Notes: generated by a model not told the origin, from the letters alone. Positions 29,888 through 64,000 are shown, numbered from the stretch's first letter. The stretch: DNA of 64,000 bases from Psilocybe cubensis (GCA_017499595.2 CM039007.1:2976001-3040000), one strand, 5' to 3'. Made by a program: numbers and translations.

Positions 29888-30101
29888 GGAGGCCGGCCTC
29901 CAAATTGATGGAGGCCACTGGAGGCCGGCCTCCAAATTGATGGAGGCCACTGGAGGCCGGCCTCCAAATTGATGGAGGCCACTGGAGGCCGGCCTCCAAA
30001 TTGATGGAGGTCACTGGAGGCCGGCCTCCGTCTAAAAATAAATGCGTCGAGGCCACCAGAGGCCGGCCTCGATTCGTACGCGCGAGTGGAGGCCGGCCTC
30101 C
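29888..30101. repeat. Subterminal 32-bp tandem repeat containing the palindrome GGAGGCCGGCCTCC
   Basis: Unit ggaggccggcctccaaattgatggaggccact starts at 29888, 29920, 29952, 29984 and (partial) 30016, with further palindrome copies to about 30101. Confidence 0.95.
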
Positions 30102-33100: not shown

Positions 33101-33890
33101 ATATCTTCCGTACAATCGAGAATAACACCCCTGTAAAGATGTAATGTATCAAGGTATGCGCAATGGTATGAATGCATCACGGGCTCATTATAGCTGGAAA
33201 CTAGAGAGCTGATTCAGAGTGCTGAGAGATGTAAGCAAACCATCTTCCAGGACCAAAAAGCCGTTCACAGCAGGTGTCCCAGGGTCTCGTTGCTCAGTTC
33301 CGTGAGCTTCCAACTCTCGTTACCGACCAATCTGAGCAATCTAGACTAGCCTATTCCTGGAAGCGAGATAAATGAGATGATTTAAACGCGGAGTAATTAT
33401 GAATTGGGGCACGAGGAGAGCGTTTGCGCCATGGTTGACATACCATGCTACACTGGGGATACATTGTAATAGAGGTGAAATGTTACCGTAAATCACCTCT
33501 TCAATATTCACATGGAGGTCATGGCACGTCTACATAACCAAAACGTTAGATAACAAATGTGGTACGTCAGAGTACTCACCTTGACATTGCTGTAAAGATA
33601 TGGTTTCGGGCATACTCAAATCTAGCGACTCCTGAATCCCCAATGCACTAGTCCATTTCATTCAAAGCCAAAGAGTATGGACAGGCAAGACGAGATGTTT
33701 TGGTCCAGTGGGACACTGCAGGCCTGCATTTGAATAAAGTGAAAAGTTTCAAACACTTTTGAGTGAGTCTGTGAGATTAATGGCAACAAGAATTCAAAGA
33801 ACCTACTGGTATAAATATATCCAACACTACTCGCAAAGTTGAAACCCCGCTGGTGTTGTCGTGAATACACCACAAAACACATTTTAGCCT

Positions 33891-34075
33891 TGGTTGGGGT
33901 TAGGGATTAGGGTTGGTGGTGACCACAAAAATACAGATTAGGATGGTTTAGGGTTTAGTTTTTAGGGTTGGTTGGGATTCGATATACCACAAAAGCACAG
34001 ATTAGTCCGGTTAGGGTTGGTTAGCATTGGTTAGGGTTGGTAATTACAATTAAATATTTAGCTGGTTAGGATTGG
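33891..34075 (+). repeat. Degenerate interstitial telomere-like TTAGGG cluster (also about 61668-61852)
   Basis: Six perfect TTAGGG plus TTAGG/TTGG variants in about 180 bp. Confidence 0.6.
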
Positions 34076-40616: not shown

Positions 40617-43065
40617 ATGGGTCTCCCAACATCCACCACCACCACCACCTCCACCACCACATCCGACGACCCCCTATCAACCCTCCTCCTCCCCCCACCC
40701 AACGAGACCCCCCTCGAAAGAACCGCACGATTGGAGGCAGAGGCTGCTGCGCGGAGAGTGAGTGAGATGATTGATGAGGAGTTGAAAGTTGAGAGAATGG
40801 AGAGGAGACGGAGGGAGAGGGGGGTTGTGAGGGTGCTTTTGTTGGGGCAGAGTGAGAGTGGTGAGTTTTTTTTTGGTTTTGTGGGTTTTGGGTTGGGGGT
40901 TGGGGGTTTTTGGGAGGGGGAGCTGACGTTTTTTTTTTGGGATTTTTTTGGGATATGATGTGCGATTGGGATTGGGATTTGATGTGCGCTCGTGATATGG
41001 ATGTGGTCGTTGGTGTGGTTGTGATGGTTAGGCAAATCGACGACGTTGAAAAGTGCGTTGTATTATCTTACCGTGTGGGCTTATACTGACTTCTTTCCCT
41101 TTCCTCTCTCCTCCCAACCCAACCCACCCACCTACCCACCCGATACTCCCACCCACCCACGCGACACAGACTTTCGAATGAAATACGCACGCGCAGACTG
41201 GGACGCCGAGCGCGCGTCATGGCGCGCTGTGATCCAGCTCAACGTGATCCGCTCGATCATTACGATCGTAGAGGCGCTGCAGGCCGAGATGGACGGGGAG
41301 CCCGAGGGCGAGGGCGATCTGCAGCACCCTGTCAGTCCTGCGGGGAGTAGCAGTGCAGGTGGCGGGGGGGAAGCGAGTGGGAGTGGAGTGGTGGGAGGAG
41401 GCACGGGGAGGGAAGGGGGTAAGGCGTTGTCGACGCTGTTGACGGGTAAACACCAGGTGTTGAAGATGCGCCTCGGGCCGCTGCGCCGCGTCGAGACTGA
41501 TCTGAAGAGGCGGCTTGGCGCGGGGTCGGATGAGGATATGGGGTTGCCCTTGCCATCGCCAGCGCCTGCTGCTGCTGCTGCTGCTGCTGCGACGGGTGAT
41601 GGCGCAGCGACGAATGTGCTGGGCGGAGCGAGTCTCGGCCCGTTAAGTCTCGAAACGGAACCGCAGGGTCTGGCGCGCCCGCTTGGTGCTGCGTCAGCGC
41701 AACGCGAGTTTGGAGTTACGCGGCTGCAGGAGGCGTTGCAGCGCGGGCAGCGCTTAGTGCGGAAGGGCTCGGCGCAGAGTGTGAGGAGGCAGGCGAGGGT
41801 GGGGAGTGGGCGTGCGACGCCCGTTGGTGAGGATGGGGAGGGGGAAGGAGAGATGGTGGATGATGCGACGGAGATTCTGGCGAGTTGTTTGGACGATATG
41901 AAGGCGCTGTGGACGGACGATGTTGTGCGTGCCGTGCTCAAAAAGCGGAGGATACGGATCGAAGATACAGCTGGGTTGTACGTCCGCCCTTTCTCTCTAC
42001 AGTGTGTGTGTGCTGATGGACGAGCAGTTTCCTGGACGACCTGGACCACATCGCCCAGCGCGATTACTCGCCGTCAGACGATGACGTCGTCCGCGCACGA
42101 CTCCGCACGCTCGGCGTGCAAGAGTACCGCATCAGACTGGACGACGGCCCGACTAGCATCTTTGCGGGCGGTATCGGCGGCGACGCAGGTAAAGAGTGGA
42201 TCTTGTACGACGTAGGTGGATCGCGGACTGTGGTATGTCCCCCTCTCCCGACTTGTTTCGACCCTGGCTCACATAGTCACAGCGCCACGCGTGGTTGCCG
42301 TACTTTGATAATGTCCAAGCTATCATATTCCGTGCGTCCCCCCCCTCCCCTCCCTTCGCATTCATTAACACAGCTGATACACCCCAGTGGCGCCCGTATC
42401 ATGCTTCGACGAGCGCCTGACCGAAGACGCACGCGTCAACCGCCTCGAAGACTCCTTCCTCCTCTGGCGCACCGTCTGCTCCTCCAAGCTCCTCGCCAGC
42501 ACGACCATGATCCTCTTCCTGAACAAATGCGATTTGCTAAAGAGGAAGCTGAAAGCGGGTGTGCAGGTGCGCAAGTATCTGCCTAGTTATGGTGAACGTG
42601 CGAATGATGTGAATACTGTTGTGAAATGTGCGTTGGAGCCGTTTTTTGGATTTTTGATTGCTGATGGTGTTGGTAGATTTGAGAGAAAAGTTTAAAGAGC
42701 AGTTGAAGGAACACTCGCCTACACAGCGCGCGAGCTACTTTTACGCTACGTCCGTCGTCGTACGTCCTTCCCTCCCTCTCTCTCTCCCCTTCTCTCTCTC
42801 ATCCCTGATGGATTAATTTACAGGACACAAAAGCTACAGCGACGACTATAAAAGCTGGTAAGCACCACTCTCCTCCATCCACTTTATGCTACTAAGCTGA
42901 CGTGCGGGTTATGTATAGTCAAAGACAGTATATTGCGGGACTACCTCAAAAACGCCGATTTCGTACGTCCCTTCCTGTTCCCCTTCCCCTTTCCCACTTC
43001 TCCCCCTCCCCCCCTCCCCCCTCCCACCTGTTCTTGTGCTGAATTATGTTGTTCAGTTGTCGTGA
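40617..43065 (+). CDS. Atypical heterotrimeric G-protein alpha subunit, multi-exon
   Basis: VLLLGQSESG|KSTTLK, RARLRTLGVQE, YDVGGSRT, ILFLNKCD, TSVV|DT. Long Gly/Ala-rich insert in the helical domain. Confidence 0.9.
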
Positions 43066-43850: not shown

Positions 43851-45319
43851 GTATCGGATGTATAGACGTACGACTTCAGCTTCAGGCTTCAGGAGTTTAA
43901 CATCGAAGCACTATTATAAGCGCGCGCACGGTTTGGACGAGGTAATTCGTACGGATATGAGTGGTTGGTAGAGTTGCTAGATTTTGTTTAGCGGCCGGAT
44001 AAGCTTGGAGAGCATTTAACGGTCTATCCGTCAATGATATGGGTCTTTTCAGGATCATGTAAACGTTTTGATATACTGATTCAGATACACACTGTAGGGA
44101 TATTTCCATGACACATATAGCCCTTCTAATAGTGCTCCAAGTGGTGTAGCGAGTAAACTGCTTTTGTATCTTACTTTACGTGGAAAGACAGAAATGCATG
44201 CGGGCTATGAGGTGGTAAAATGGTACTTCTTCGGGTGACGGAATGGAATGGAGGATGGTCGAAGAGATACTGTTTCCAAAGCAGATATAAAACCAAATAA
44301 AGGTTTTGAGAGTCAAGGCTAGGGTACAGAGATCTATGGGTTTTTCGGGTAGACGGATAATGGTCCCAATATAGGAATGCCCGTCGGTCCATCGGCCGCC
44401 CCCGAGACCTGCTCAACTCGGGTGCTCCGATGGGACTTTCGACTCCCTCGCAGCTGTGACGTGGTGCCCGTTGCCGGTCATTGATCTCACTGGTCCGGGT
44501 GGTCTCAAGCCAGTTGTTGTTTATCCAGGTTTTTACTGTAAGAAAGCTGTTTGTGTGTACATATAGATTATTACACGCGATTGGCAAGTCTTTCCACCTC
44601 TACACGTAGCTGTTGAAATGTCTGTGCTTCGCGTGCAATGACGTTGGAGCGAGCAGGCGAAGGCCTGGACAGCGTATTAACTCGGGCGACTAGAGTGTTG
44701 ATTCCGGTGTAGGCGCGGAAGAGGCGGCCGTTGATTTCCCTCAGTCTAACCTCCACCTCTGATTCCTGCCTCCGTGCCTCCGCTATCAAGCGTCACGAGC
44801 ATCCTGAACGCGTGGCCTAGTACAATCCGACCCCCATCGCTGTCTTCGGTGTCCTCGTCTTCGGACGTGTCTGTAGTTGCGTCAGACGCCTCCCATGGTG
44901 GGGGAGACCAGTATTGCGCGCCCGCGGTTGCTATTCATAGGGAATGAGGAGATGACCGCACGAGCAGGCATTGGTGTCGTATAGTGTAGCCTTGTCCCTT
45001 GGGTATGCCTCTTCAACCCTAGGCTTATTCCCCCCCGAAGGGGGGGCCTTCGTTGCATTGGGCCTCCTGTTCAGAATTCCTGAAATCTGATGCCAGATTC
45101 GGATTCCTGGACCCCAAAAACCCCCAAATACACTTTCAAAATATTTTATTTTGTACATACGGAGGTGCTACGTAATTAAATGTGTAATTTATGGAGGCCG
45201 GCCTCCAAATTGATGGAGGCCACTGGAGGCCGGCCTCCGTCTAAAAATAACTTTTGACAGGCACTGGAGGCCGGCCTCCGTCTAAAAATAAATTTTTGAC
45301 AGGCACTGGAGGCCGGCCT

Positions 45320-46610
45320 CCCGCCTGTCTCCCGATGCCAGCGCTCGCCGTCCCAAAGCTTGCGCTCGCCGTCCCAACGCCAGCGCTCGCCGTCCCAAAG
45401 CTTGCGCTCGCCGTCCCAACGCCAGCGCTCGCCGTCCCAACGCTTGCGCTCGCCGTCTGCCCGACGCCTGCGCTTGCCGCTGCATGTTGTTGCGCTGCCA
45501 CCTCCGGGCCGCTGCTGCTGCCGCCACCTCCACTCGACGCCTGTCGTTCAGCCGTCACCGCGTGTCATCCCGCCGTCGCCGCCTGTCGTCACGACGTCAC
45601 CGCGCGTCATCCCGCCGTCGCGTCTAGTCGCCGCCCACCACAACACGCACTCTGCTGCGTGTTGTTGCGCCGCCACACCCGTGCCGCTGCTGCTGCTGCC
45701 GCCTCTCCTCGTCCCCTGTCATGCCGCTGCCGCCTTCCCTCGCCGCCTGTCATTCCGCCGTCAGCGCGTGTCGTCCCGCCGTCGCCGCCTGTCGTCCCGC
45801 CTTCGCGTCCACTCGCCGCCCACCACAACACGCACTCTGCTGCGTGTTGTTGCGCCGTCACACCGGACCGCCGCTGCCACTGCCGCCTTCCCTCGCCGCC
45901 TGTCATTCCGCCGTCAGCGCGTGACGTCCCGCCGTCGCCGTCTGTCGTTCAGCCGTCACCGCGTGTCATCCCGTCGTCGCCGCCTGTCGTCACGACGTCA
46001 CCGCGCGTCGTCCCGCCGTCGCGTCTAGTCGCCGCCCACCACAACACGCACTCTGCTGCGTGTTGTTGCGCCGTCACACCGGACCGCCGCTGCCGCTGCC
46101 GCCTGCCTCGCCGCCTGTCATTCCGCTGTCAACGCCTGTCGTCCCGCCGTCGCCGCCTGTCGTCCCGCCGTCGCCGCCTGTCGTCACGACGTCACCGCGC
46201 GTCGTCCCGCCGTCGCGTCTAGTCGCCGCCCACCACGACACACACTCTGCTGCGTGTTGTTGCGCCGCCACACCGGGCCGCCGCTGCCGCTGCCGCCTGC
46301 CTCGCCGCCTGTCATTCCGCTGTCAACGCCTGTCGTCCCGCCGTCGCCGCCTGTCGTCCCGCCGTCGCCGCCTGTCGTCCCGCCGTCGCCGCCTGTCGTC
46401 ACAACGTCACCGCGCGTCGTCCCGCCGTCGCGTCCACTCGCCGCCCACCACGACACGCACTCTGCTGCGTGTTGTTGCGCCGCCACACCGGGCCGCCGCT
46501 GCCACTGCCGCCTCCCCTCCCCGCCTGTCATTCCGCCGTCGCCGCCTGTCGTCCCGCCGTCGCCGCCTGTCGCTGCCGCCGCGCTGCCTCTACTCGCCTC
46601 CTGTCGCTGC
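45320..46610. repeat. GC-rich nested 21-bp and roughly 190-210-bp tandem repeats
   Basis: Units gccagcgctcgccgtcccaa(a/c) and ccgtcgccgcctgtcgtcccg, with a recurring block ccac(a/g)acac(g/a)cactctgctgcgtgttgttgcgccg. Confidence 0.9.
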
Positions 46611-46851
46611 CATTTCGCTGTTTTGTCTTTGATACACCTCGGCCTTGCTGTACTGTAATTTTGTTAGATTTTTTATAACTAGTCATCTTACCCTGATATC
46701 AACTTGTATATATCTCACGCGAGCTCTCTTGTGTAGACACCAAAAAATAAATTTATATGACATTTTGAACAAAAAAACACGCATATATCTACATATTTTT
46801 GTTAGAATGGGCTATTCTTAAAATGAAAAAACACTTACATTGACAATGTAA

Positions 46852-49800
46852 CTACAGGCCTGGGCGAACACGATAAGTTGGCACCACCGGTACGTGCCCG
46901 TTGACAAAGGCCTGAGCTCGTTGAGACGCTGCCGCCAGAAGCTTCCTACTGGGAGGAGTGCCGCGCAATATTGATTTCCATTGCACTCTTGTTAATGGCT
47001 GGGCCTGCCGAGTGCGGATGTCTTCTACGCGTTCACGGTACCATGCCTCGTTGGCAGGCGTCCATTCCACCCATTGTGATCCGTTCATGCTGGGGGGCAC
47101 CTGCCACAGGTTCGGGGGAGGGAACCACGATTTTACAGTTATTTGACCTTTAGTAGCTGAGAAAAATGTTGTTAGTGCATAAAATTGAGAATAAACAAGG
47201 AAAACATACCTGTGTACAGCGTGTAGGTGCCGCATATAATGGACAGCTCGTTCTCCGTGAGCTGGTCGTTGCAATAACACCAAGTCGTGTCGCCAGCTGG
47301 CACGATGAACCCCTGCCGGTTCTGAATGATTTCCTTAGAGGGGCCAGCCAGCCCATCGTCGACGCTCAGAAACTCACTGGCTATCCTACCCACCAATCCA
47401 CCCCTCAGCAAGGCAGCCCGACCGTGTTGTTGGTGTTTGATGATGTTCTCGCATTGCAATCGGTATGCTTCGAAGTCATCAACGCCAAATTTGTACGCTG
47501 ACGGGCGGACAGATCGAGGGGTGTATGGCTCCTGGACAGTGGAGCAGCGACCCGACATTTCAATGCCCATGAGAGTGCGACAGGGCACACCTCTCTCCAG
47601 CAGCATTTTTGTCAGGGAGTCGATGGGAGCCCAGGAGTGCTCTAACCTGAGCCGACACACGTAAAGGGCGATCTCTGCCGTTTCAACACCCAACATCCAC
47701 TCGTGTTCCTCTGAACGAGGTTCTGAAAAAACAAACAGATTTTCATGGGGGCGGTGTATTTGCGAGAGGTCCAGCAGACGAGACAGGGATGTCAGGCTGT
47801 GCGTGTTGAGGTCAGAGAGGGCGGCCGGCATTTCTGTGCTTGTGGGTTCAATGCAAGCCAGATAAAACTGTTTGATGTGTTGTCGAGCGTCCAGGGTAAC
47901 TTCTGGGGTAAGTAACTCTGTAAACCCAAAGGTTTCGACCAGTTCATCCCAGTCTGCAGCGGCACAGGGCGTCGTCGTTGTGCCAGGGAGGTAGCCGTAA
48001 GATTGGCGCAGGCATCTGACCATATCGTTGTCGGGTGTAATGGGCTGGGGTTGCACAACATCCGTGGCGGGCGCGTCCATGGTCATCTCAACATCCGCAT
48101 TTTCATCCTCAACAGATGGGCCTGGTTCCTCCATCTCGAAATCTTCGACGACGGCAGGGGGGCTCTGTTGGACCCGCGACTCGCTCTCTGGGGAACGACG
48201 TGCTCGTGGGCGAGAGCGCGTTGCAACCTCTGGGGGTGTTGGCGAGCGACTGCGCAGGCGCCGTCCTAGCGTGGGCCGTGGGGGTGTTGTGGGTGCGCGG
48301 CGGGGTCTATCTCGCGATGACGAGGGTGTCGGAACCTCAATGACAGGCGGGTTGTTTGGAGGCAAAGGGGGTGGGGAAGGATTACGAGCGGGGGGAAGGG
48401 CCGACGTTGAGGCCACCGGCGCATCGGGGTCAGGTTCAATGGTGTCGTACCAGGGTACGCCTTCCCACTCTTCCTCGGCAGGTGCTGGTTTCGGGTGCTG
48501 CCTGGGTTGTTTTGCGGGACGTACACCTCTACCGCGGCGATGCTGGCCTCTAGCAGGCCTTGTCTGTGCCTGAATGCACTGGTCCAACATCGCGGATGCG
48601 CCTGCCAACTCGGCTGGTGGTTCCAAATCTCGACAGAGATCCCATTCGTCTGTCACACCGTTGTAGACCTTGCGGTGTGGGCGAAGTTTGGCCTCCTCGA
48701 TGCTGTTTCGTGACGTTGCGATGTGTTCGCGCATGTAAACGCTGGCTCCCTCTGTGGACACCAGCGTTTTCCAGACAAATACTTTGCTACGTACCACCGA
48801 TGGGTTGTTCTCTCGGTTCAGGCGAGCCTGTCTAGCTTCTGGCGTCTCTTTGGCCAGAATCCGTCGCCGTTCTTCCACCCTTGCAGCCCAGTAAGCGTCC
48901 CAGTCATCGTGCACAGAGGTCAGCAGCTTGTGGTTTTCATTCGCCAGTTCGATCATGCGCAGCGTAGGCAGGTTGGCGCTGTCAATGGCGAGCTGACGCT
49001 GTTCCTCGTCTCTCTTTTGGAGCTTTTTTTCCAATTCTTCATATGGCTGGGACATGTGCTGATCCAATGCCTCTGAGTTGTGGGCGAAATCGTTACTGAG
49101 GATAGAATACACCAAAGTAGTGGAGTACTCATCTCCCAGCGACTTCATCGTGAGGCCCTCCGTCGAATGAGATTTATTAAAAAATTTGCGCGCAAAGGCG
49201 GCTGCGAGAGACACGTCCATAGACTTGAACAGGTCGGTAAGTGTTGCCGCCAACAAGTCGCGCGGGGGGCGAAGCTCGAGATTGAGTATTTTGTGGGTGA
49301 GGAAGATTTCCTCTTCCCGCATCCGCCACGGATAATAGACTGGAACATGGTGTTCCAGAAGCCATTCGATGGGAGGGCGTGTCGCGTGGGTGCTGCTCAA
49401 CTCGTAGACCATGCCGACACGAGGGGTTCTGGCGTTAAACGAAAATACGTTGGAATGATACAAGCCATCCAGCCATACTTCTGAGATGTCAGGATGCTCA
49501 GCGCGGAGGCGTTCATGCCATGCAGGGACGGGGCTTTTGGGATCGTGCTTGATGTGCTTTGAATAGATCTCGCGACGACTTTGGGCGACGAGATACGACA
49601 GGTAGCCCATCCACAGGATAAACGCGTTTCGGGTGGCCTCAAAGCTCCTTTGCGCGTCTGCTTCAGAGCTATACCTGAGATCATAACCGAAGCTTTTGGG
49701 GCTAGGAGGTGGGGTTCCAGGAACGCGACACCATAAGCGGATCTTTTCGCACAGAAGGGTGATGTTTTCATCCAATTGGCGCCATTCTTTTACGCTGTGC

Positions 49801-50192
49801 CACTCCATTTCATACGTGGCCGGAGACTTGTGCGGTTTATTGCGCAAAATCTTTGGAGACCAGCACAAAAAATTAAACGGCAAGGACACGAATGATGGCG
49901 CCAAGGGTATGAAGGCGATCCACCCGTACTGATCGTGCCAGCGCACTGGCTGTTTGACGCCCTCTAAATCCAGGTCTCGTCGCCGAGGTTCTGCTCGTGT
50001 CGCCTTTTGTTCGAAGGGGTTGGTGACGTCGACCTCAGCGGGTGGGATGATGACGACACGCTTGCAGTTGGGGGACACGTATATGGTGCCCTTCTGGACA
50101 AACGCGGACCCTTGGGCCCAATCGATGTGGGTTTGCTGGGACATCTGCAGCAGAGTAAGTAACAAGCATATGTGGGCAACGAACGTGAACAC
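46852..50192 (-). CDS. Large protein of unknown function (over 1000 aa), element-associated
   Basis: 1006-codon open frame plus a spliced last exon (YT|ATKGQITVKSWFPPP..WTPANEAWY). Trp-rich N- and C-terminal blocks (GWIAFIP, WLDGL, GRAALLRGGLVGRIA, LTENELSIICGTY) flank a Pro/Arg-rich linker. True start uncertain. Confidence 0.85.
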
Positions 50193-50208
50193 TTACGGTG
50201 GGGGCAGA

Positions 50209-51530
50209 GCAGAACGGTTAGGACGATGGCGATGGCCTTAGATGACTGCAGAAGAGCTTCTGCAGTCGCCTCAGATTGCTACAGAAGATCTTCTGTAGTT
50301 TTCAGAGGTCGGGGGTGTTGGTGTCGGCGACGCGTCTGGCAACAAGGGCGGAGGAGAGAGCGAGGGTGGCTACAAGCAGAACGGTTGGGATGGTGTCAAT
50401 GGCCTTAGATGCCTGCAGAAGAGCTTCTGCAGTCGCCTCAGATCGCTACAGAAGATCTTCTGTAGTTCTCAGAGGTCGGGGCCGTGGGTGTCGGTGGACG
50501 CGTTTGGAAACAAGGGCGGAGGAAAGAGCGAGGGCGGCTACAGAAGAGCTTCTGAAGCCTATCTCGGATGGCACACGCGAAGTCGAAAATGGGGGTGGAG
50601 GGAAGAACGAGGCTGGCTACAGAAGAGCTTCTGTAACGATTCTCGGACGGCTGACGTGAAGTGTCAAACGTCGGGGCAGGGAAGAGCCAGAGTGGCTACA
50701 GAAGAGCTTCTGTAACCTTTCTGGGATGGCAGACGCGGCGTGCTACAGAAGAGCTTCTGTAGTGTGCGTGCGTGCTAAAGAAGGAAGTGGACTTAGCGTT
50801 GGAATGTTGAAAAAACGCCCAGAGCGGAGTTTCAATTAATCACGTGACCGCTCGCGGGCCCTGTTGATCGCAACCCCAGAGTGTTCCTGTTCTCCATCCA
50901 CCTCCAAAGCTCTTTGGTCGTGGATCGTGGGCGAACAGTACCAAAGCTCTTTGGTACTAGTTAGTCCATCCTTCTCCGTGTCGCACCCCCCCTCACGGTG
51001 CTCTGATCCTCAAGAGATCTCAGGTTCTATCCACCTCCAAAGCTCTTTGGTCGTGGATCGTGGGCCAACAGTACCAAAGCTCTTTGGTACTGGTTAGTCC
51101 ATCCTTCTCCGTGTCGCACCCCCCCTCACGGCATTTCGATCTTCAAGAGATAGCGGGTTCTGTCCACCTCCAAAGCTCTTTGGTCGTGGATCGTGGGCCG
51201 TCAGTACCAAAGCTCTTTGGTACTGCCTTGTCCATCCTTCTCCGTGTCGCACCACCCCTCACGGTGCTTCGATCTTCAAGAGCTCGCTCCTGCCAATGCC
51301 CCCCCACATATCCATCCGCCTCCAGAGCTCTCTGGTCGTGGTTCCCCCCAATGCTGCAAACCAAAGCTCTTTGGTTTGACTCCACTTCGTCCAACGATTC
51401 CGTCGGCCTGGGATACGTGTGCCAGTCGACCTCCTACCTTGATTCTGTGATTGTGAGTCGATATACCCGCCTCCAGAGATCTCTGGTCGTGGGCTGTCGC
51501 GTTATTGTGCAACCAGAGCTCTCTGGTTTG
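50209..51530. repeat. Intergenic array of short inverted-repeat motifs within ~167-bp and 133-bp tandem units
   Basis: Eight CAGAAG-A(G/T)-CTTCTG motifs at 50246-50762. Ten CCA(A/G)AG-(C/A)T-CT(T/C)TGG motifs at 50904-51528. 133-bp units start at 50897, 51030 and 51163. Confidence 0.9.
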
Positions 51531-52071
51531 TGCGCGTTACACACGACCTGGCCTCCCGATATGCTTGCGCACAACGCCTTGCCGCCGTCGATTGTGTCGG
51601 GCGCGATTTTTGATTGGGACGCCTTCGGACTGTCGTGCACTCCGGCGTCTGATTAATTCAGCCCTTTCCTCTTATCGGAACGACAGTCAATTAACTATCG
51701 ATCTCTTCTTTACACCCCTATACGTCTTCTGGAGGGCAAATATTCTCGCCTTCCATCGCAGAGCGTAGGGCGTCGTTCTCAGATATAGACCCCTTCCACC
51801 CCCAGCGTCGTTAGTGGGCCTAACCTGTTCCCTTCCCTCACCCAGACACCAAACTTCCAAGCATTTTCCAACAAAAAACGGGGATGGAAGGTCAGTAGGG
51901 TGTTTTATAGCGGTTACATGTACTAACCGTTTGATTCCAGATCCATCTGAACCAGCGAAGCGACGCAGGAGGGAAACAGAAGACGATGGTGGACGTGAAG
52001 GGCGTGCGAGGCGAAAAGATAACCAGCGATCGGTCACAGTAGGCGATACAGTCGTGCCACGCAACGCCGAC

Positions 52072-55000
52072 ATGAAATTTCCGTGCACACACTGCCGCAA
52101 GGAGTACAGTACGCCCTACAGTTTACAGGTGAGCCAGTTTCCAATGTGTTTTGATTTTTCACGCTAAATCCATACTACAGCGTCACTTTGCTGATTCGCA
52201 CGCAGAACCGTCGTTGGAGGTTCCCCAGCAGACCTCAGACAACGAGCGATCGTTATCTCCACCGTCGCCGGAGCCCATGTTTCCATCGCAGCTCCCTCGC
52301 CCATCTTGGGGAGCCGCACCTCCTACAAGAGCCGCACCTCCCGCTTCACAGCTTCATCCGCCATCTACGCGCTTGTTTCTTATCCCGCACGCTCCCAGCA
52401 GGCAAGTGTTGCCGCGTCCCTTGGGCTCGAGGGCAGGATCGCCCCCAACAATGATTCCTGCGCCGGTAACACCTGCGGCGAGTCGGCCATCTACGCGCAC
52501 GTTTCTTGGCCCGCGCGCTATCAGCAGCCAGGGGTCGCCGCGTCCGTTGGTCTCGAGCCCAGGATCGCCCCCAACGATGATACCTGGGCCCGTTTCTCCT
52601 GCGCCACTGCGCAACGTATCTGCGCAGAGGATGACACCGACACCTCCGGGCATGCATCAGCCACCGCCTATTCGCGCCACGCCCACCACTGCGATGGAAG
52701 TAGATGTTTCGCTCTACGACATCGTACCCGATGACCACACAGTGATCTACGACAATGCGCACAATCTTCCGGCCCTTGGAATTGTTATCAACACTTTTCT
52801 CAAGATTGTTATCCGCATAGAATGTGGGGAAGCGATTGAGCCGGCGTCGGTGTGCGCACACGTCAAGCAGCACAATGCACACTATACACCAGGCCCCACA
52901 TTGCTCGAAGATCTTCGGCGGAAATACGGGATCGTGTCGCTGGCTGAGATAGCCTACAGCGCTGGACCAATCCGTCCGATTTTTGGGATTCCTATCGAGG
53001 CTGATCAGCTCCATTTTTGTTCCAAATGCCACCGCGGCTACAACTCGTTGTTGAGCCTGCGGGGTCACCAGTCTAACGGGCAGCGTTGCCAAGTGCCTAT
53101 CACGCAGCGCGCTTGCTACACGATGTACGGGCAGATACTTACAAAAGGCCCAAGCAAGCGGTATTTTCCAGTGGACACCTCTTGCCTCTCGCTTCGCCAG
53201 GACATTCCCTTTGCATACTCGACTGTTTTTGGAACAACAATGCCGCCTCCACCCGATTACACACAGTTGCCCGTCCAAGACATTGAGGACCCGCAAAATC
53301 TGTCCTCGTTTCTCTTCCGCGAAGGATGGCTTGACGCAGTGAAAGGGTTGACCCCTGTCGACATCCAGGAGGTTACCAGGCTACCAGACGCCAAGACCGA
53401 GCCATGGGGCAAACAACTCCAGCTCGCAGCCCATCGCGCACTGGCCAGTGTACAGCTACTGGTGAACGAACACCATACGTTCGGGATGACACATAATATT
53501 GCTCAGTTCAATCAATCGTGAGTTTATTTCCATTAAAACAACGCTGATATTAACCCCACACGGTAGAAGCAACATGTCGTCCAACAACTTCAACCACATT
53601 CAACCCAAGACGCAGCAGCGATACGGAAACATTATTGTGCGGCTTATTTTCAACGTTTTGCGCACCATGGACCCCGCGTGGACATCTCCCGTGCGCTACC
53701 CCTCTCTCGACGCATCTCAGAAAGTAATTTTGCTAGAGCTACGAGCCAAACTGGATGGCGCAGACAAAAAGCTCATCGACGAGGCATATCAGAAGGCGTG
53801 CTACTCATTATTTGCACACGAGCGACGCCAGTACCCGATCAGCTCTAAGCTGCGAAAATTCTTCTCGCCCGTCATCTTGTTCGTCGTTTTCTACTCTCTG
53901 CGCGCGAACGGGAGCTTCCGCTTGGCGTCAGAGATTACGGGCATATGCGCCGCCGTTGAATACTGCATTCGGACGACAATGCTCTTTGAAATCGAAAGGA
54001 TATCCGAAGAATCCAACGTTTCGTCATTCGAGTAAGTTCCTTACTTTTTTCATGTTCATTTGTTAATATATTGTTCCTAGCGCTCTCAAAAAGGTGGAAA
54101 GGTACATCTCAACGGGGCAGGAGACGCCAATGGCGTTTATTTACAATGTCCACCGTGTTCTCGCATCCGTGCGCTCAGACGAAGTCACCGCCTCCCAGTT
54201 TCGTTTCACGGACAAGAACGGAAGAGAGGTTAGCTGCAACGGCCACCTCATATCTCTATCGATGATCAAGAAAATGCACGACGAGGAGCATGTTCGGTAT
54301 GAGAACATGGTACAGGATCGTCTCTTTTTTGGCGAAGACATACCCAGCGATCTCTTCCCTGAACTCGACCTCGAGAGCATAGTCGACAGCGCCAACAATA
54401 CATCTGCTGGCTATTGCTTCCTGGACGACCCTCGCAACAATTTTTCTGCTTATCGGGACTCTTACGGACGTTGGTTGCTCTCCGACCCTGTGCGAGCCCA
54501 GCGTTTCGTTTATATGCATGAAGGCGAGCTCGTTTGGAAGCCTTCTGCCGCCCTTGACCTATTGCGGCGCATGGAACGCGTACGCGAGGTCCTAGCGCCG
54601 GGGGTTTCCTACTCGACTCTTCTGCAGGTTCGGGGGTCGGAATTTGCACGCGCGTTACTCAGGAACACACCCGCAGCCCTACGAAACCTGCGGTTTGAGA
54701 TGCACTTGCTGGCGCACGTTGCGTTGCAGGACAAGACATCGCATCTACATCTCAAGGATCGCCACATTCCTCACGTCATTACCCGCGAGTGGGCAGAGTC
54801 CCTCATCCGAAACCTTGCTGTATTTCGCCCGTTTGAAGAAGTTCTAGTGGCGAAATTCCTCAACCCCGAAGCACTTCATCGCTATCGCGTTCAGCTTTGG
54901 CCGGGCATCAAATCGACGATGACGTCTGAGGCATTCAGTGCTCGATGTGGCGACATGACAATGCGCTATCTCCTGCAGCCGTTCAAGCCTCTTCGCTGGC

Positions 55001-57494
55001 GCTCTCTGATCACGGCGTTTGCGCGTTTCTTGCCGGATTCTCGCTCATACGAGTCGCAAAAGGAGTTTTTTGTCGACACGGCCATGATGCACTCAACGGC
55101 GATGAGCAACAATCGATACGGGCGACATTCTGACCAGGCATTGCAGTCCGACTTTCGTACAACCATTGGGTGCATCCAGGCCGCTTTAGACATGCAGAAG
55201 CATGTTGGGATTGGACAGGCGCGTCCGTTTACGCTCACTGTACCGTCCGAGGTACCTGAGACTTCCACTGGCGGCGCTCAAGGTCAGTGGCATAACTAGA
55301 CCGCAATTTATGCGTTATTAATTTTTTTTTAGGAATTGTACACGACGTTAGCTCGCTGGAGCGCATAGCGCGGTCAGCTATGCTCGAAATCACAGGAAGT
55401 TTGGAGGATCGCGTGAAGGAGACCATCCTCGACTCTATGGCGGTCGTCATGGCGCAGATTTTGCCCAAGACACCTCGTCCGCTCAACGAGAACAACCTCC
55501 GCCCTGTTGCAGACATTGACCCCCACCCCTCGCGCCTACGCTCTCTGCGTCAATTCCTCAAGCGGCCTGCAGCGAACTTTAGCTGCCCCGAGCAGGCGCT
55601 CCTCCTGGAGCTCATGTGCCGCGGGCAGCAGAGCGTGCTGGGTATCTTGGGCACGGGCAAGGGAAAGACGATGCTAGTCTTTCTCTATGCTTATTTATTC
55701 GGGAGCTGTGGCATTACGGTTGTCATTCTTCCGCTGTCATCCCTCCGCATCGAGTACAGCCGGCGCGCACAAGAGCTGGGTATCTCCTCGTCAATCTGGA
55801 CGCCAACGGCGAAGCACAATTTGGACGTTCAGCTGCTGTGTGTCTCGATTGAGCACGTCAACTTTCACGACTTTGAGAGGTGCGTTACATGCCCAAGTAT
55901 TGATTTTAGTTATTGACTTGATTTTCAGTGATCTCGCGTCTTTAGAGCACCAGAAGCGTCTGAACTGCATCATCTTTGATGAAGTTCACAAGGTGGTCAC
56001 GGATATCACCTATCGGCCCTCGTTTGAGAAATTCTGGGTTCTCAACAAGGTAAAGGCGCCGATATATGGGCTTTCTGGATCTCTGCCTCCGTCGACAATG
56101 GCAGAGTTCAATCAGCTTACGGGTACCACATGGAAGGTCGTCCGTACGACTTCAAACCGACCTGAGCTCGCCTATAGGATCATCCACGTCACCGGCGACA
56201 TGCTGAAACGGCTCGTTGAAGATATCGCAACGTACATTGCGAATTATGGACCCCGCGATCGTCTAATGGTCTTTTGTCGCACCAAAGAAGATGTAACGGC
56301 GCTGTCCGACGCTCTTAGAGTGCCTGGTTTCACCTCGCACACCGCCGAAACCAACGACGACACGTTGCGAAAATGGCGCTCCGGTGAAAACATTGTCATT
56401 GTCGCCACAAGTATTCTGGGCTGTGGGCTCGACTACCCAAGCGTTCGCCATGTCCTACACTGGGGCATTGCGCACTCGATGGTTGATCAGCATCAGCAGG
56501 AGTCTCGCGCTGGCAGGGACGGGCAGCGTGCTGAAGCCATCACATACGTGGCTTCTCCTTCTCGTCGTTACTCCAAATCTGCGACCGCGCATGGCCTTTC
56601 AGAGCTCGAAAAATGGTCCTCGTCAACGGATATGTGTTTGCGGGCCATTCCTAGCTCGTATCTTGACGGCGTTCCCATCACATGCTCCTTGCTCCCGAAC
56701 TGTGAGCTTTGTGCCTACTGCTTGGAACAGATGCATCAGGCTCCGCCTCTGCGAGTGGCCTCGATCTCCCACCTCATCAGCGACCCAGTTTCTGTGCCAG
56801 CTAAGCCCCAAACAACCCCGATTCGCCCGCCATTCCGTGTTTTTGTCCCTCCAAAAACACCTATCACCCCCGTCATACAGTCTGGCGAGTCTACGCCTGC
56901 CTCGGCCGTTGATTTGACGTCAAGGTAAGTCTCCATGTTTGACTTGAAGTATTTTAACAACAATTATATTTCTAGTTCTGCTTTTTGCCAAGTTTCATCA
57001 CCATCGACTCTAGTTGCTGGGGCCAGCGACGACAGCGGGACCTTTGGTACCACAGCTGGCTCTCCAGTGTCCCCCACCTTCCACTCTGCGAAGCGCGTGC
57101 TTCCGGAAGACGACAACACGGCCAGTAAACGCTTGCGGCTGTCGGACCCAACCTCAGCACTTCGAGCAAAGCCCGCCACTGTTCCAGCCCAGCCTCGGGC
57201 GACAAACCGCGTGCTTCCGGAAGACAATAACACGACCAGTAAACGCTCGCGCCTGTCGAACCCACCGTCAGCATTTCAAGCCAAGGCCTCTACTGTCCCA
57301 GTCCAGCCTCGGGCGACGGTGGGTTTAGTAGCACGTATAGATCATGCCGCTGTTCAGGAGGCCGCCAAACGCTTTACTCTGGAGGTTAGACAGCCCATTA
57401 TAAACGCACTGAACCTGATCCGAGGAAAGTGCGTTATCTGCCTCATGCTTCATAGAGCGGACTGGGAGACCCACCACCATGACGACTGCCCTAA
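52072..57494 (+). CDS. C2H2 + DUF3505-like + putative tyrosine-recombinase domain + RecQ-like SF2 helicase (telomere-linked-helicase-like); 3' end interrupted
   Basis: CTHC..LQ|RHFADSH zinc finger; ECGEAI..CAHVKQH and CSKC; RGSE..DKT..WR..MHS..RYG; helicase motifs GTGKGKT, IIFDEVH, LSGSLPP, NRPEL, VFCRTK, ATSILGCGLD, QESRAGRDG and a Cys cluster. Frame runs into the element end at DDCP-K. Start may lie further upstream. Confidence 0.85.
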
Positions 57495-60400
57495 GCTTAT
57501 TCCCCCCCGAAGGGGGGGCCTTCGTTGCATTGGGTCTCCTGTTCAGAATTCCAGAAATCTGATGCCAGATTCGGATTCCTGGACCCCAAAAACCCCCAAA
57601 TACACTTTCAAAATATTTTATTTTGTACATACGGAGGTGCTACGTAATTAAATGTGTAATTTATGGAGGCCGGCCTCCAAATTGATGGAGGCCACTGGAG
57701 GCCGGCCTCCAAATTGATGGAGGCCACTGGAGGCCGGCCTCCAAATTGATGGAGGCCACTGGAGGCCGGCCTCCAAATTGATGGAGGTCACTGGAGGCCG
57801 GCCTCCGTCTAAAAATAAATGCGTCGAGGCCACCAGAGGCCGGCCTCGATTCGTACGCGCGAGTGGAGGCCGGCCTCCCGCCTGTCTCCCGACGCCTGCG
57901 CTCGCCGTCCCGATGCCTGCGCTCGCCGTCCCGACGCTTGCGCTTGCCGTCCCGACGCTTTCCCTTGCTACCTGCCCGACGTCATTGCACCGCCACCCCG
58001 GGCCGCTGCTGCCACCGCCGCCTCCACTCGACGCCTGTTGCTGCTGCCGTGCCGCCTTCCTACCAGTAACGTGCGGCGAGTTGTTTGTCCATGCTGTTGT
58101 CATTGCATTCAAACTCCGCCTTTTACCCTTACGCGCACCGCAGCGACGTGTTAACATATTATGCACTTCGTATCATTGTCACATCCAGCTCCACCCTCAC
58201 CCCACTGCTGTCATCCATGGCTCCTCTTCATCGGTTTAACACTGCAGCCGGAGGATGGTATAGCGAGGGTGGCAAAACACCCCACCCTCAACGCTGATGG
58301 GCTGTATGCGCATGTATCAGCCATGATGTTGACAAATACGGATTCAACGACAAGTGGCGTGTAGACGCAGCGTCTGGCGGGGCCCGTTGAGCAGTGGTGT
58401 TCTAGTGGGTATACAGGTGCTCGTGTGAGGGTGTGGAAAAGTGTATGATGGGTGTGTGTGCGTGTGTGGACATGAGTGAGTAAATATTGTCCTCCCCTCT
58501 ATCTCTCTTCACTAATCTCCACACTTTCCACCACCACCACCATCACCCGTTCGCCGACGCCTCGCTGAGAATCAGAATCACATACATATCTGTCCCAATC
58601 CCCACCCCTCAAAGCATGCTGTCGAAACAAGGTCCGAACAAGTGGCCCATGCCTCCTCCCGGCAGTGAGCGTGTCCATCTGATTGTGACTGGCACTCACC
58701 AATGACGCCGTCGAAGTGCATCTTCAACAGCGAACACGGGTCATTGATAGTCGAGGTCATTGTTTCGAGGGGTTTTCTGTGCGTCGGACACATCTGTCGT
58801 GGACTACTCACCTCTAGGCATCATACCACACAATGACCTGGCATTCAAGAAGACCCTGGGAGGAACAGACACGTCGGATTAGGTGAGTCAGTCAGCATGT
58901 TTGGTTTACTGTGACTTGGACTCAACCATAACAGCGCCCCGGCGCATCTTCACCAACGAGCGCGGTTGGTGATAGTCAAGGTGTCATTTGAAGGGTCTTG
59001 TGTGTTTCAAAGAGGCTTGCATGTGTCAACGTGGGATCGTCAATGTGAGTAGCTGGACATGTCTGTGCACGATTACTTACCTCCAATGGGTGTCAGACAA
59101 CACAGATGCCGCTGACTGGAAGAGACACGTTGGGATGAGGTGAGTGGGCACTTCTTATGACTGGGACTCACCAATGACGGTGGCACGGCACATTTGGGTG
59201 AAGTCATCGTCGTGTCGAGGGGCCTGTGTGGGTGTCAAGGTGAGTCGCTGGACGTGTCTGTGTTGGTTTGCTTACCTTGGGTCTTCACAGGTGATGACCT
59301 GGCATTCAAACAACAACAAAAAATCGTCAGTCGCAGCGGCAAACCCCCAGCTCACACGATGACGTTGGTTACCAGAGGACGCGGAGCGAAGAGGAGAAAA
59401 TTGGAGAGCAGAGAAAAAAGGGGGGAGACCCCCTGAGCTGGGCAGAAGAGGAGGAGCGGGATGAGAAAAAGTGAGTCGATTCACGGTCCCTTTTATAGTC
59501 CCCAAACACGCCGCTATATGTACGCCCACTACGCTATGCATTTTCGGGTTGTACCATGCTGTTTTCAGGGTTCAATTTTGGGATCAACAGATGATTTGAG
59601 GGCGAACCAAGCGTTAGCCGAGTGTATGTACACTGTGCTTCTGTGTTTTAGACTCCTGTATGTCTGTAGATTCCAAATAAATTTCTTTTCAAGTTTCTTT
59701 CAACATTCAGATTGTGTATTTCAAGTGAATTTCAATGTTTTGTGCGAGGTCAAATCAAACAGTTCTCAACGCGCCTGTAACTCTGTACTGGATACCATTC
59801 CTACTCCCATCGCGTTAGAAAGCTACGTACATTGTCATTTTCAATGGAAACAAACTAATTCATTCAATTCCAGGATATCCAACATCACCTTTCTGCTCAA
59901 ACTTTTTTTCAAGACGCCGCTAGACCTTACGTTGACAAAATATCACCCAAATAGTACCCTGACGACCTAATTTCCAGACGATTGAAACCGTGTTCTCTTG
60001 GAAGATTGGGACGGGGAAGGTGTGGTAGTGCCGTATCCCATTCATGCAGTCAAATTTCGCATCACCGTCCCCATGCAAACGCTTTCACACCCGCATATAA
60101 TCACCCATATCTTTTTATTATTCAATGCATTCACATTTTGTTGAGGTATAGGCGTTTTAGTGCGACTCCAAAGGCTTCAGAGTAGCTCAGGGAAGCCAGT
60201 AAAATGTACTTTGAGGCTACCGTATCGTGACTATGTCTTATATGACATCAAACACCGTAGGTGAAGGAAACAATGTGTATCATGGTTAGTATCTGAATCG
60301 ATTCTAGGACGGAGCATGGGCGCTTTGAAGATGATACGCGCTTTGCTATGGACTTCATTGACATCTACCATGGGTACACCTTATTTTTACCTTTCCTCAA

Positions 60401-63400
60401 CATGACTTCGTCTCAACGCGCGCGCGGGTCAAGGGAAGTTAGTGAGGTTTAAACGGGTAGGGGAATTGATGTTGGTGAGTGAGTTGTTTTTGGTCTCATG
60501 TTCTGGTAGATGGAATGGACGAACAGACGAGCGTACCATCACCCTTTGCTGGTATACACACTACCTCGGTGTTCACCTTCCATTGGCACATTGTGGTATG
60601 CATAACATAATCATTGTGGCCCAGCATGTGATCTATGTGTACATTGTGCGCATTTCACACAGTTGGTATGCCGCCTGCGTTGTTAGTCACTGCTATTATG
60701 GCTGATATCTATTTTTTGTGTATTCCAATTGCCTCGCACTTGGACTAGTTCTTGGATACATTGTCTAAACTTTAATTTCTCCATGGTTGATGTGTTTTTC
60801 ATACGTCTCTGTGTCGGCGCATTTGTATCAAATGTTAGCTAAAAATGTGTCTTACTGCCTAGTTGGGTTTAAATGTTATATCTTCCGTACAATCGAGAAT
60901 AACACCCCTGTAAAGATGTAATGTATCAAGGTATGCGCAATGGTATGAATGCATCACGGGCTCATTATAGCTGGAAACTAGAGAGCTGATTCAGAGTGCT
61001 GAGAGATGTAAGCAAACCATCTTCCAGGACCAAAAAGCCGTTCACAGCAGGTGTCCCAGGGTCTCGTTGCTCAGTTCCGTGAGCTTCCAACTCTCGTTAC
61101 CGACCAATCTGAGCAATCTAGACTAGCCTATTCCTGGAAGCGAGATAAATGAGATGATTTAAACGCGGAGTAATTATGAATTGGGGCACGAGGAGAGCGT
61201 TTGCGCCATGGTTGACATACCATGCTACACTGGGGATACATTGTAATAGAGGTGAAATGTTACCGTAAATCACCTCTTCAATATTCACATGGAGGTCATG
61301 GCACGTCTACATAACCAAAACGTTAGATAACAAATGTGGTACGTCAGAGTACTCACCTTGACATTGCTGTAAAGATATGGTTTCGGGCATACTCAAATCT
61401 AGCGACTCCTGAATCCCCAATGCACTAGTCCATTTCATTCAAAGCCAAAGAGTATGGACAGGCAAGACGAGATGTTTTGGTCCAGTGGGACACTGCAGGC
61501 CTGCATTTGAATAAAGTGAAAAGTTTCAAACACTTTTGAGTGAGTCTGTGAGATTAATGGCAACAAGAATTCAAAGAACCTACTGGTATAAATATATCCA
61601 ACACTACTCGCAAAGTTGAAACCCCGCTGGTGTTGTCGTGAATACACCACAAAACACATTTTAGCCTTGGTTGGGGTTAGGGATTAGGGTTGGTGGTGAC
61701 CACAAAAATACAGATTAGGATGGTTTAGGGTTTAGTTTTTAGGGTTGGTTGGGATTCGATATACCACAAAAGCACAGATTAGTCCGGTTAGGGTTGGTTA
61801 GCATTGGTTAGGGTTGGTAATTACAATTAAATATTTAGCTGGTTAGGATTGGATTCCACGTTCGGGTGGCAATACATGGTGTCTAATGTACTATAGCACC
61901 CATACTACGCAGCGAGGTTCTAGCAGACAAGAAGGTTGGGGATGTAGTTTAGATCATGAGGTCTTTGCATATTGTAGGCGAGTATGTATATTTGATGTTG
62001 AATTAGTAGGTAACATAGGTTATCGGATGGGGATGTAGCTAAACCCTATAATCCACACATGGAAGCAGGCCTGCATCCTTCTGTATACTTTCCTTCCATC
62101 GCAACACCCATCCAAACACCAAGGAAGGAGGTGGAAATAGAAGCGTCCACACAGCATCAAGGTCGTTATTAGCGAGTAACCCAGAGTCCGCATGGGCGAC
62201 TGCCAACTTTAATATATGGACATTAGCGGTTTGCGCATATGGCATATCGAGACGCCCTGCGCAGAGTTGACGCGGCACTGGGACAGGCACAGAGACGAGC
62301 GGGGGAGCTGTAAGTCATGAGTGGGTGGAGGGGGTCTGCAGCGGATTGTGCACGTATGACTTTTTGCAGCTAGTGTGTTGATGTTAATGTCGAAGTTGCC
62401 ATTGTGGTCATGAAGGGAGGTTGGGGGGGATGTATAAATTGTGTGTGTGTTTGGAGGCGGGTTTGCTTGAAAATGGTGCAAGAGTTGGGCAACAGTGTTG
62501 AGCTGGACACAGTTGGTTGTGGTTACGGAGTGGGATTAAGATAGGAGGATGGGAATACGCACGATTGAATGGTACCCATTACACTCGTATCATCCTCCTC
62601 TGTCTTCAGTCAATTTTGCTTGCGTCTTGTGAGTGTTGACTTATTGGTTGTCAAATTGGTGGCGGATGTATCCGGTATCCGTAGGAGAGGATCTGCGGGG
62701 GGTGGTTGTAAAAGGGGGAGTTGGTGAGGTTGTATATGGCGGGAGTCAGTGATTGTGACATTGTGGAGTAGACGGAGACGGATGTGATGGTAAATGTGGA
62801 AGTGTACGTACCATTAAAGCGTGATATGTAAATCGAGGAGGTGTCCGTCACCACTTCAGCTTGAGTATAGAGGCCGTTATTGAGCTGCTCCGCGGATATT
62901 CAGATGAGGGGCGGTGTGATATGGTTGCGGTAAGGAAGAAGACGGAGGAACTGGCCATGGCCGTGCTTTCGACATGCAGTGGCAGTAGGGAGAATGTGTC
63001 AAAGGGCAGTATTTGAAGTGCGGAGGCTTGACGAGGATTGGAGATAAGCCGCGTCTTCTGCTGCTGCTTCTAAAAGCCTCTCGGGACCCATTCTTGCACT
63101 TTCATAAAAGACGACATGGAGACGAGCGAGAGACGACCGTGAATCTTACAAGTCCGTCGATTGCTGCCAGCAAAACAAGGACAAATACGCGAGACACTCG
63201 TCACCTGTAACGCTTGCCCTTCTCCACGGAATGCGTTCACCCACCTTGCTCCAATACATCCCAAGAAGCGCAAGCCCATACTCCTAGTTAGGGGCTGTAT
63301 TACAATGAAAAACACGTATTCTAGGAAAAATGTTATTTGCAACAATGCACAATCTCGACAAACGTAAATGACACGCACCTGGAAGAAAATATCCAACCTA

Positions 63401-64000
63401 CCAACGATCTATGCAGACGTCAACGTCATCATTACAAGTCGCGAAAACGTCGTGGAATTGACGTAGAATCCGCACTCGATCCCCCGGGTACGTATGCTGC
63501 TTATTGCAAATACACTGGGTCTTCTGAAGTTGGTCTCATTTCCCAGACCTTCTAGGTCGTATATCGGAAGTCTAGTTGAGCCGAGTAGGTTCCTGCTAGT
63601 GCCCAAGAGGACCCGCAATGAAAGGAGACGTTGGAATTAGCTTGAAATTGCGAATTGCGCGAGGGGGAGGATGTGGATATGTACGTGAGTCGAAATTTTC
63701 GAGAAATTTTTCGTGATTGCGTGTTGGGATGGATGCTTTGAGTGTTGTAGGGTGTACTGCATAGTCGTATAATATATTACGGTTTGAAAACGCAGTATTC
63801 TTGTACTGCCTTCTGATTTGTATTGAGAGCGCGTTCGGGCGCTTAACGTTTTTCGACATGTCCAACTTTTCTCAATCTACTTTCACTCAAAATTCGTATT
63901 TTAACAGGTAGTATTAATACCATTTTATACCTCCAGTACCGTGTAAAAAAGAAGAGCAAGACAAGAACTTACTGAACGGTGTGGCTCAAGGTCAAGAGTG
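57495..64000. mobile_element. Large apparently non-autonomous element, copy C (runs off the window), inserted in the helicase gene
   Basis: Near-identical to 29718-36223; begins after CCTAA inside a coding exon. Confidence 0.9.

Follow-up and report, generated by a model that had tools for sequence, protein, structure and literature searches.

Telomere-linked helicases (TLHs) have been known for more than 25 years from yeasts, plant pathogens and one choanoflagellate. Their architecture, as outlined in the relevant passages of two preprints, comprises a pair of C2H2 motifs at the N-terminus, a TLH domain of about 250 residues that immediately precedes the helicase, and RecQ motifs (bioRxiv 2024.02.27.582403; 2022.03.07.483234). 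The same passages attribute the TLH domain to Rehmeyer et al. (2009), state that the function of TLHs is undetermined, and assign to the domain neither a fold nor a chemistry (bioRxiv 2024.02.27.582403; 2022.03.07.483234). The stretch analysed here, 64,000 nucleotides of Psilocybe cubensis (GCA_017499595.2 CM039007.1:2976001-3040000; hereafter the window), carries a member of this family that is annotated tlh1 in P. cubensis, a name that NCBI has also given to a Hypsizygus protein. As far as the sections describing them go, the known TLHs (Schizosaccharomyces pombe Tlh1/2, Magnaporthe oryzae TLH1, those of Ustilago maydis and Fusarium oxysporum, and Botrytis cinerea BcTLH) have the same architecture and are multi-copy like the window gene. 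Whereas those sections leave the TLH domain without chemistry, the present reading takes it for a tyrosine-recombinase-like module of two domains that retains its whole pentad of catalytic residues. Since the gene belongs to a known family, this amounts to a new reading of that family and not to a new family. A search of the full-text literature, with subscription journals, supplements and domain databases (InterPro) outside its reach and prior notice there possible, found no paper linking TLHs to recombinases, integrases or the DNA breaking-rejoining fold; the one review that contains both "telomere-linked helicase" and "integrase" uses the terms in unrelated passages.

The reading starts from five residues in the exon that precedes the helicase exons. 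The original prediction had located there an R, a K, a second R, an H and a Y reminiscent of a tyrosine recombinase active site, with the first Arg in an RxxE motif, 123 codons between the two Arg and nine codons from H to Y. Read from the translated sequence (window:54082-55281, in the frame of the open reading frame (ORF) 54067-55299, which also sets the residue numbering used here), all of these coordinates and spacings are correct, the residues being R184, K218, R307, H337 and Y346 (Table 1). The nine residues from H/W to Y in known recombinases were likewise checked on the sequences of XerD, Cre and lambda Int and agree. The range given for the fusion, 54094-56928, takes in one module exon and both helicase exons, but the module begins earlier, in the exon 53567-54031. 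When the same 400 residues are shuffled, the bare pattern RxxE/D...K...R...H/W-9-Y, with loose windows, turns up in 707 of 5000 trials (14%) and is thus not beyond chance, so that its significance rests on conservation, predicted fold and profile alignment.

Relatives were collected with a HMMER scan of 1.84 billion representatives (a library clustered at 50%), using the protein of the 54081-55282 exon as query. Of 447 that reach E<=1e-3, 63 also reach E<=1e-30; many are proteins of 1400-2400 aa in which the domain lies around residues 500-1000, and the named homologues come from Flammula, Crepidotus, Cyclocybe, Mycena, Gymnopilus, Fomitopsis, Hypsizygus, Phlebia, Pisolithus, Suillus and others. 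The query and those 66 of the 150 listed matches that cover it from residue 150 or earlier to residue 360 or later were aligned, leaving out the 84 partial ones. Among these 67 sequences R184 is retained in 62 (three gaps, one C and one H elsewhere), K218 in 65 (the other two being gaps), R307 in 66, H337 in 65 and Y346 in 66, and E187 is found in 57 with D in five more. The alignment of homologues, proposed earlier as a check, thus finds R, K, R, H and Y near-invariant (62-66 of 67). In alignment A1, which holds 33 sequences, the sole invariant columns are R184, R201, K218, R307, H337 and Y346. A Leu had been noted in place of the His of HxxR, and this is correct (L304, three residues before R307); position 304 varies throughout the 67 sequences (L21 T11 R11 N7 K6 Q4), and the mismatch is therefore a trait of the family and not a defect of the window copy. 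Position 306 is a conserved aromatic (W in 43 and Y in 14 of the 67). Two further arginines, R201 (63/67) and R249 (62/67), are conserved as strongly as the pentad, and no counterpart in classical recombinases can be assigned to them. A search with A1 among proteins of 2194-5000 aa gave no matches, and a metagenome scan gave a single 1.8-kb contig with no context. In the ESM Atlas the clusters closest to the domain are unannotated fungal proteins from Ascomycota and Basidiomycota; a cluster labelled Phage_integrase follows only at 0.86 and is no more than a lead.

The register of these residues was examined against a reference alignment of 15 diverse bacterial and phage recombinases, composed of 13 PF00589 loci of Escherichia coli K-12, Cre and lambda Int. 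Its catalytic columns hold R, K, the second R, H/W and Y in 15 of 15 sequences each, and the His of HxxR in 13, the remaining two having Tyr. Comparison of the 67-sequence profile with this alignment by hhalign scored 27.8 (P 0.0065), against a mean of 9.9 (standard deviation 2.0, maximum 17.3) in 60 column shuffles and 16.7 for the reversed alignment. In XerD numbering it pairs R184 with R148, E187 with E151, K218 with K172, L304 with H244, R307 with R247, H337 with H270 and Y346 with Y279. As had been proposed, the five residues line up with the R, K, R, H and Y that form the active sites of the Xer, Cre and lambda Int enzymes. Pfam and NCBIfam assign no family to the 54081-55282 exon, and a phmmer search of PDB sequences with the exon found nothing relevant.

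A model of the exon protein predicted with AlphaFold 2 (AF2) reached a predicted local distance difference test (pLDDT) of 85.3 and a predicted template modelling score (pTM) of 0.83. When it was compared with 48,161 PDB representatives by VIA-align, rows 1-19 were all tyrosine recombinases, topoisomerase IB or Ndc10. A second model, of the 33% identical homologue P0027 with about 165 residues upstream included (pLDDT 82.9), had the same superfamily in rows 1-18, aligned over nearly the full length (spans XerA 19-279, IntI 11-292, Cre 28-307), and its N-terminal part alone matched 3nrw (an integrase N-terminal domain), Ndc10 D1 and the ALOG domain. The near-full-length and N-terminal matches argue for a whole two-domain module, the core-binding-like part of which would lie largely in the exon 53567-54031; in the 1805-aa product the module would occupy about residues 512-1065. 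In the exon model R stands at a helix start and is followed by a beta-hairpin (DSSP strands 203-206 and 209-214, before K218), K, a strand and helices, the helix of the second R, H, and the helix of Y, an order which we take to be that of the recombinase catalytic domain. The DNA breaking-rejoining fold postulated for the exon is upheld by VIA-align in both models. In Foldseek searches of PDB and BFVD the exon model reached E<=1e-3 with no entry, although Cre, Xer and IntI chains make up 11 of the 50 weak rows listed for PDB, and the highest rows in BFVD are integrases (best E 4.7e-3). The domain is very probably a true recombinase-fold module of the catalytic type.

The two exons 3' of 54081-55282 encode, by their motifs, an SF2 (superfamily 2) helicase of RecQ type. 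They match Pfam Helicase_C at 3.6e-13 and NCBIfam recQ_fam at 2.8e-20, the latter under its cut-off, while the A1 profile matches RecQ5, RecQ and RecQ1 chains at E ~1e-6 and, weakly, helicase domains of reverse gyrase (E 0.014-0.04). Gene models, in-frame introns and continuous ORFs in relatives indicate that the 54081-55282 exon is spliced to the helicase exons. The introns between the open frames are GT-AG and 49-52 nt long, and the exons join in frame on the plus strand. The spliced translation is identical to P0327 (UniRef "DNA 3'-5' helicase", Psilocybe cubensis) over the residues given in Table 1, and 96-99% identical to P0168 (NCBI "ATP-dependent DNA helicase tlh1 [Psilocybe cubensis]"), with identical junctions; residues 1 and 2 of the annotated product are supplied by an exon upstream of 51940 that was not located. 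One sequencing run presumed to be RNA gave no contigs over the gene, which bears in neither direction on its expression. The 90% cluster of P0168 also includes a 57-residue "acyltransferase family protein [Klebsiella pneumoniae]", a label that is probably due to a contaminant contig or a clustering artefact. A helicase N-lobe lies on the same chain in 68 of the 193 family proteins having the exon-3 match, these 68 including unnamed contig ORFs, e.g., P0171 (594 aa), probably called without splicing, and the helicase is C-terminal to the domain in all five full-length homologues scanned with Pfam. The union of a recombinase-like domain and a RecQ-like helicase in one polypeptide, the core of the original prediction, is thereby found in gene models from many Agaricomycetes.

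Computation of three independent kinds lends good support to the fusion of a cryptic recombinase-type module with a RecQ-like helicase. The overall explanation that we consider likely is that of a complete two-domain tyrosine-recombinase-like module which is joined to the helicase, would catalyse through Y346 and would serve the spreading of TLH-bearing DNA. Several points weigh against it. First, the register of the pentad comes from profile-profile alignment and not from a three-dimensional superposition of side chains, and the hhalign probability against the 15-recombinase set is just 5.9%. With single XerD, Cre or lambda Int sequences that probability is <=1% and the registers are partly correct, the alignment with lambda Int placing H337/Y346 on H333/Y342. 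Second, Pfam PF00589 (Phage_integrase) matches none of 33 family members at E<=10, and the A1 profile finds only helicases among PDB sequences. Third, the His of HxxR is absent and no conserved residue takes its place in the 67 sequences. Fourth, the module is probably the published TLH domain, the two being equated by described architecture and not by alignment. Fifth, no element termini, terminal repeats, target-site duplications or empty sites were found in the window, and this copy of the gene is truncated at its 3' end, where the frame enters an unrelated repeat from 57490.

The active site would consist of the pentad R184-K218-R307-H337-Y346 plus E187, without the first His of HxxR. Y346 would attack a DNA phosphate to give a covalent 3'-phosphotyrosyl intermediate, which would then be religated or transferred. 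Meanwhile the attached helicase would unwind the DNA under exchange or drive its branch migration, and the zinc fingers would select the site. The most likely role would be that of a self-propagating cassette, whose recombination would duplicate TLH-bearing segments, or move them, from one chromosomal site or end to another. Taken by itself, the proposition that the module exchanges strands as a recombinase in order to spread itself has somewhat less than an even chance.

The same module could instead serve as transposase to a DNA transposon that is discrete and autonomous and represents a new recombinase plus helicase class with defined ends, which we regard as rather unlikely. Six gene models of P. 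cubensis with at least 90% identity lie on at least four contigs, and the family is sizeable (447 matches), patchy and rich in fragments, as would suit a transposon. The window was also compared with three other DNA runs from one study (X1-X3). Among the 18 best-supported coding differences listed between them and the window 11 are synonymous, and within the recombinase module and helicase the listed synonymous differences outnumber the others by 10 to 3; the preponderance of synonymous changes argues for a protein under constraint and agrees with mobility. Crypton and Starship, other eukaryotic elements that bear recombinases, are moreover DNA transposons in the accounts drawn on here. On the other hand, the absence of terminal repeats, target-site duplication and empty site around the gene in the window tells against defined ends, the contigs of X1-X3 have no clean empty site, and subtelomeric segmental duplication explains the copy number equally. 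The direct repeats at 45017 and 57489 were considered as the terminal repeats of an element and rejected, because that repeat also occurs by itself at 29714 and its boundary is joined to other sequences elsewhere (in runs X1-X3 to several different contigs of other strains); the contig joints across 45261-57789, which a single run shows, lie inside this repeat. With no termini, target-site duplications or empty sites found and the copy truncated at 57490 by this other repeat, the description of the protein as the mobilising enzyme of the element is not borne out.

This interrupting repeat, termed R, is not part of the gene. Its segment 57489-57710 recurs at 45017-45238 and 29714-29933, and in run X3 one contig tracks the gene to 57492 and then prolongs the reading frame with a different sequence. 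The copies at 45017-46600, 57489-58100 and 29714-30200 have a common sharp 5' boundary followed by 32-bp units (TGGAGGCCGGCCTCC...) and 21-bp units, which at 45330-46589 are expanded to GC-rich (61-64%) higher-order arrays of 194/215 bp. The segments 29714-36223 and 57491-64000 are direct copies of each other over at least 6.5 kb, with 99.88% identity and a period of 27,777 bp. The duplication continues past the window end and may stem from a recent segmental duplication in tandem or be an artefact of the assembly. There is no terminal TTAGGG array in the window. A degenerate telomere-like tract (TTAGGG / GGTTAGGGTT variants) is present at 61670-61850, about 4 kb downstream of the helicase gene, with a duplicate near 33894; it may be the relic of a chromosome end.

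A further possibility, less probable than the transposon, is a swivel similar to type IB topoisomerases, which nicks and religates one strand to relieve torsion or to process structures made by the attached helicase. It would be a one-chain analogue of reverse gyrase or RecQ-Top3 and have a host or semi-domesticated function in recombination or replication at chromosome ends. The conserved set resembles the R-K-R-H-Y pentad of topoisomerase IB, without the extra His of recombinases, and fusion to a helicase would suit such an activity. Nothing speaks for multimers, a homodimer prediction with the 400-residue domain (score 0.00) counting neither way. However, three traits of the module are those of recombinases, namely its RxxE motif, its HS..T...Y box and its helical core-binding domain, which can be aligned with the N-domains of Xer, Cre and IntI, and the poxvirus, bacterial and nuclear type IB topoisomerases have lower structural scores than the recombinases, to whose core-binding domains the N-terminal domain of the module is matched. 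The His of HxxR is also missing in two of the 15 reference recombinases, so that its loss is compatible with recombination.

It is very improbable that the domain descends from a recombinase but binds DNA as a mere scaffold that has lost catalysis, after the manner of the N-terminal domain of Ndc10, a kinetochore protein of yeast that shares the fold, as all five positions are kept in 62-66 of 67 sequences of families just 22-45% identical, which is not expected of an inert scaffold. Hardly credible is a chance resemblance of an unrelated helical domain with a common residue pattern: the frequency of the bare pattern in shuffles and the non-significant Foldseek, Pfam and hidden Markov model searches would allow it, but a single superfamily occupies rows 1-19 and 1-18 of two PDB scans, integrases top the BFVD rows, and no shuffle matched the alignment that puts the five residues on catalytic columns.

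Among other known systems the recombination module, as we read it, is closest to the Xer/Cre/lambda-Int recombinases (PF00589 with a SAM-like core-binding domain), which are the best structural matches over both of its domains. It differs from them in having no conserved HxxR His, in the size of the catalytic domain (about 340 vs. about 180 residues, owing to large insertions), and in being eukaryotic and covalently joined to zinc fingers and a helicase. Cryptons, Starship captains (DUF3435) and DIRS/Ngaro elements also bring a tyrosine recombinase into fungal genomes and, unlike the window protein, are not described with a fused helicase in the accounts consulted; the word "helicase" occurs 0 times in the text of a Crypton survey as available (PMC3212892), and some elements of the Crypton, Starship or DIRS type are described as lacking the terminal inverted repeats of cut-and-paste transposons. 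The original prediction knew of no standard class of transposable element defined by this fusion; the protein does, however, fall within the described TLH family. DUF3435 has no match among the 25 of 31 Pfam families listed for the 33 members and none on the exon, and GCR1_C, often present in Cryptons, is not among the families listed for the homologues scanned. Helitron Rep-Hel, reverse gyrase and RecQ-Top3 offer a functional analogy, in that a centre which cleaves and rejoins DNA is combined with a helicase motor; no homology is claimed, as both the catalytic folds (HUH, topoisomerase IA) and the helicase families differ from those of the window protein.

Table 1. Exons, motifs and candidate catalytic residues of the tlh1 gene, and the adjoining repeat, in window coordinates.
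Feature	Position	Strand	Evidence or remark
5' coding exon: acidic/basic N-terminus, first half of C2H2 zinc finger 1 (FPCTHCRKEY...)	51940..52128	+	spliced translation = P0327 residues 3-1805
Exon: remainder of zinc finger 1, Pro-rich region, OrsD-like double zinc-finger (ICIECG...H...H, FCSKCHRGY...HQ)	52181..53517	+	
Exon: most of the predicted helical N-terminal (core-binding-like) domain of the recombinase-like module	53567..54031	+	model of homologue P0027
Exon: end of core-binding-like domain and entire predicted catalytic domain of the tyrosine-recombinase-like module	54081..55282	+	AF2, VIA-align, hhalign
R184 (CGG) in QVRGSEF; R184-G-S-E187, putative Arg I in RxxE	54631..54642	+	aligned to XerD R148/E151
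K218 (AAG) in QDKT, candidate general-acid Lys after beta-hairpin	54733..54735	+	aligned to XerD K172
R307 (CGC) in PLRWRSL, putative Arg II	55000..55002	+	aligned to XerD R247
H337 (CAC, AMMHS) to Y346 (TAC, NRYG), HSTAMSNNRY: putative His III and candidate nucleophilic Tyr	55090..55119	+	aligned to XerD H270/Y279
Exon: linker and first helicase lobe	55333..55879	+	Pfam DEAD, NCBIfam recQ_fam/DpdF weak matches
Walker A GTGKGKT	55650-55670	+	in exon 55333..55879
Exon: helicase motif II, second lobe, RecQ-type motif VI	55929..56924	+	Pfam Helicase_C, NCBIfam recQ_fam
Helicase motif II DEVH	55978-55989	+	
RecQ-type motif VI QESRAGRDG	56497-56523	+	
Last exon: low-complexity tail, 114-bp duplication, beginning of Cys/His motif (CVICLMLH...HHHDDC)	56976..57651	+	
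Repeat R, interrupts the gene and is not part of it	57489..58100		sharp 5' boundary, 32-bp units 57664-57806, 21-bp units

The Cys/His columns of the zinc fingers are conserved in the family alignment A2, and OrsD (PF12013) gives weak Pfam matches (E 1e-4 to 4e-4) at the equivalent place in full-length homologues. Weak matches to zf-C2H2 were likewise obtained. Two in-frame tandem duplications are present in low-complexity regions, one of 126 bp in the Pro-rich region (52357-52603, copies 81-82% identical) and one of 114 bp in the tail (57091-57317, copies 85% identical). Divergent from the helicase gene, an uninterrupted ORF of 1006 codons occupies 47172-50192 on the minus strand and is present in X1-X3; it has no Pfam family (DUF1351 at E 0.041 only) and no usable ESM Atlas neighbour. 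The region between the two divergent genes holds arrays (50208-51291) of 167-bp and 79-bp units with the palindrome CTACAGAAGAGCTTCTGTAG, followed by three 133-bp units. Elsewhere the window contains an NLR-type gene at 26193-29243 (+; NPHP3_N/NACHT, E 2.6e-24), a HET-domain gene at 2418-3449 (-; E 2.9e-22) and a G-alpha fragment at 41025-42215 (+).

It is tempting to speculate that TLH genes, including the classical helicases from the subtelomeres of fission yeast and of the rice blast and smut fungi, are the enzymes of an unrecognised class of self-propagating eukaryotic DNA element, an idea that we put forward tentatively and consider doubtful. In such a class the TLH domain would be the active site, the recombinase and the RecQ-like helicase would cut, unwind and rejoin DNA, and the cassette would be copied to chromosome ends and other sites. 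If the domain is the active site of a recombinase or topoisomerase, the TLH family gains a chemistry that can be mutated at a single Tyr. If true, this would also offer a hypothesis for how TLH genes multiply among chromosome ends and for their role in telomerase-independent survival, and it would be the first recombinase-helicase fusion among eukaryotic recombinases, with a bearing on the classification of transposons and possible use as a recombination tool.

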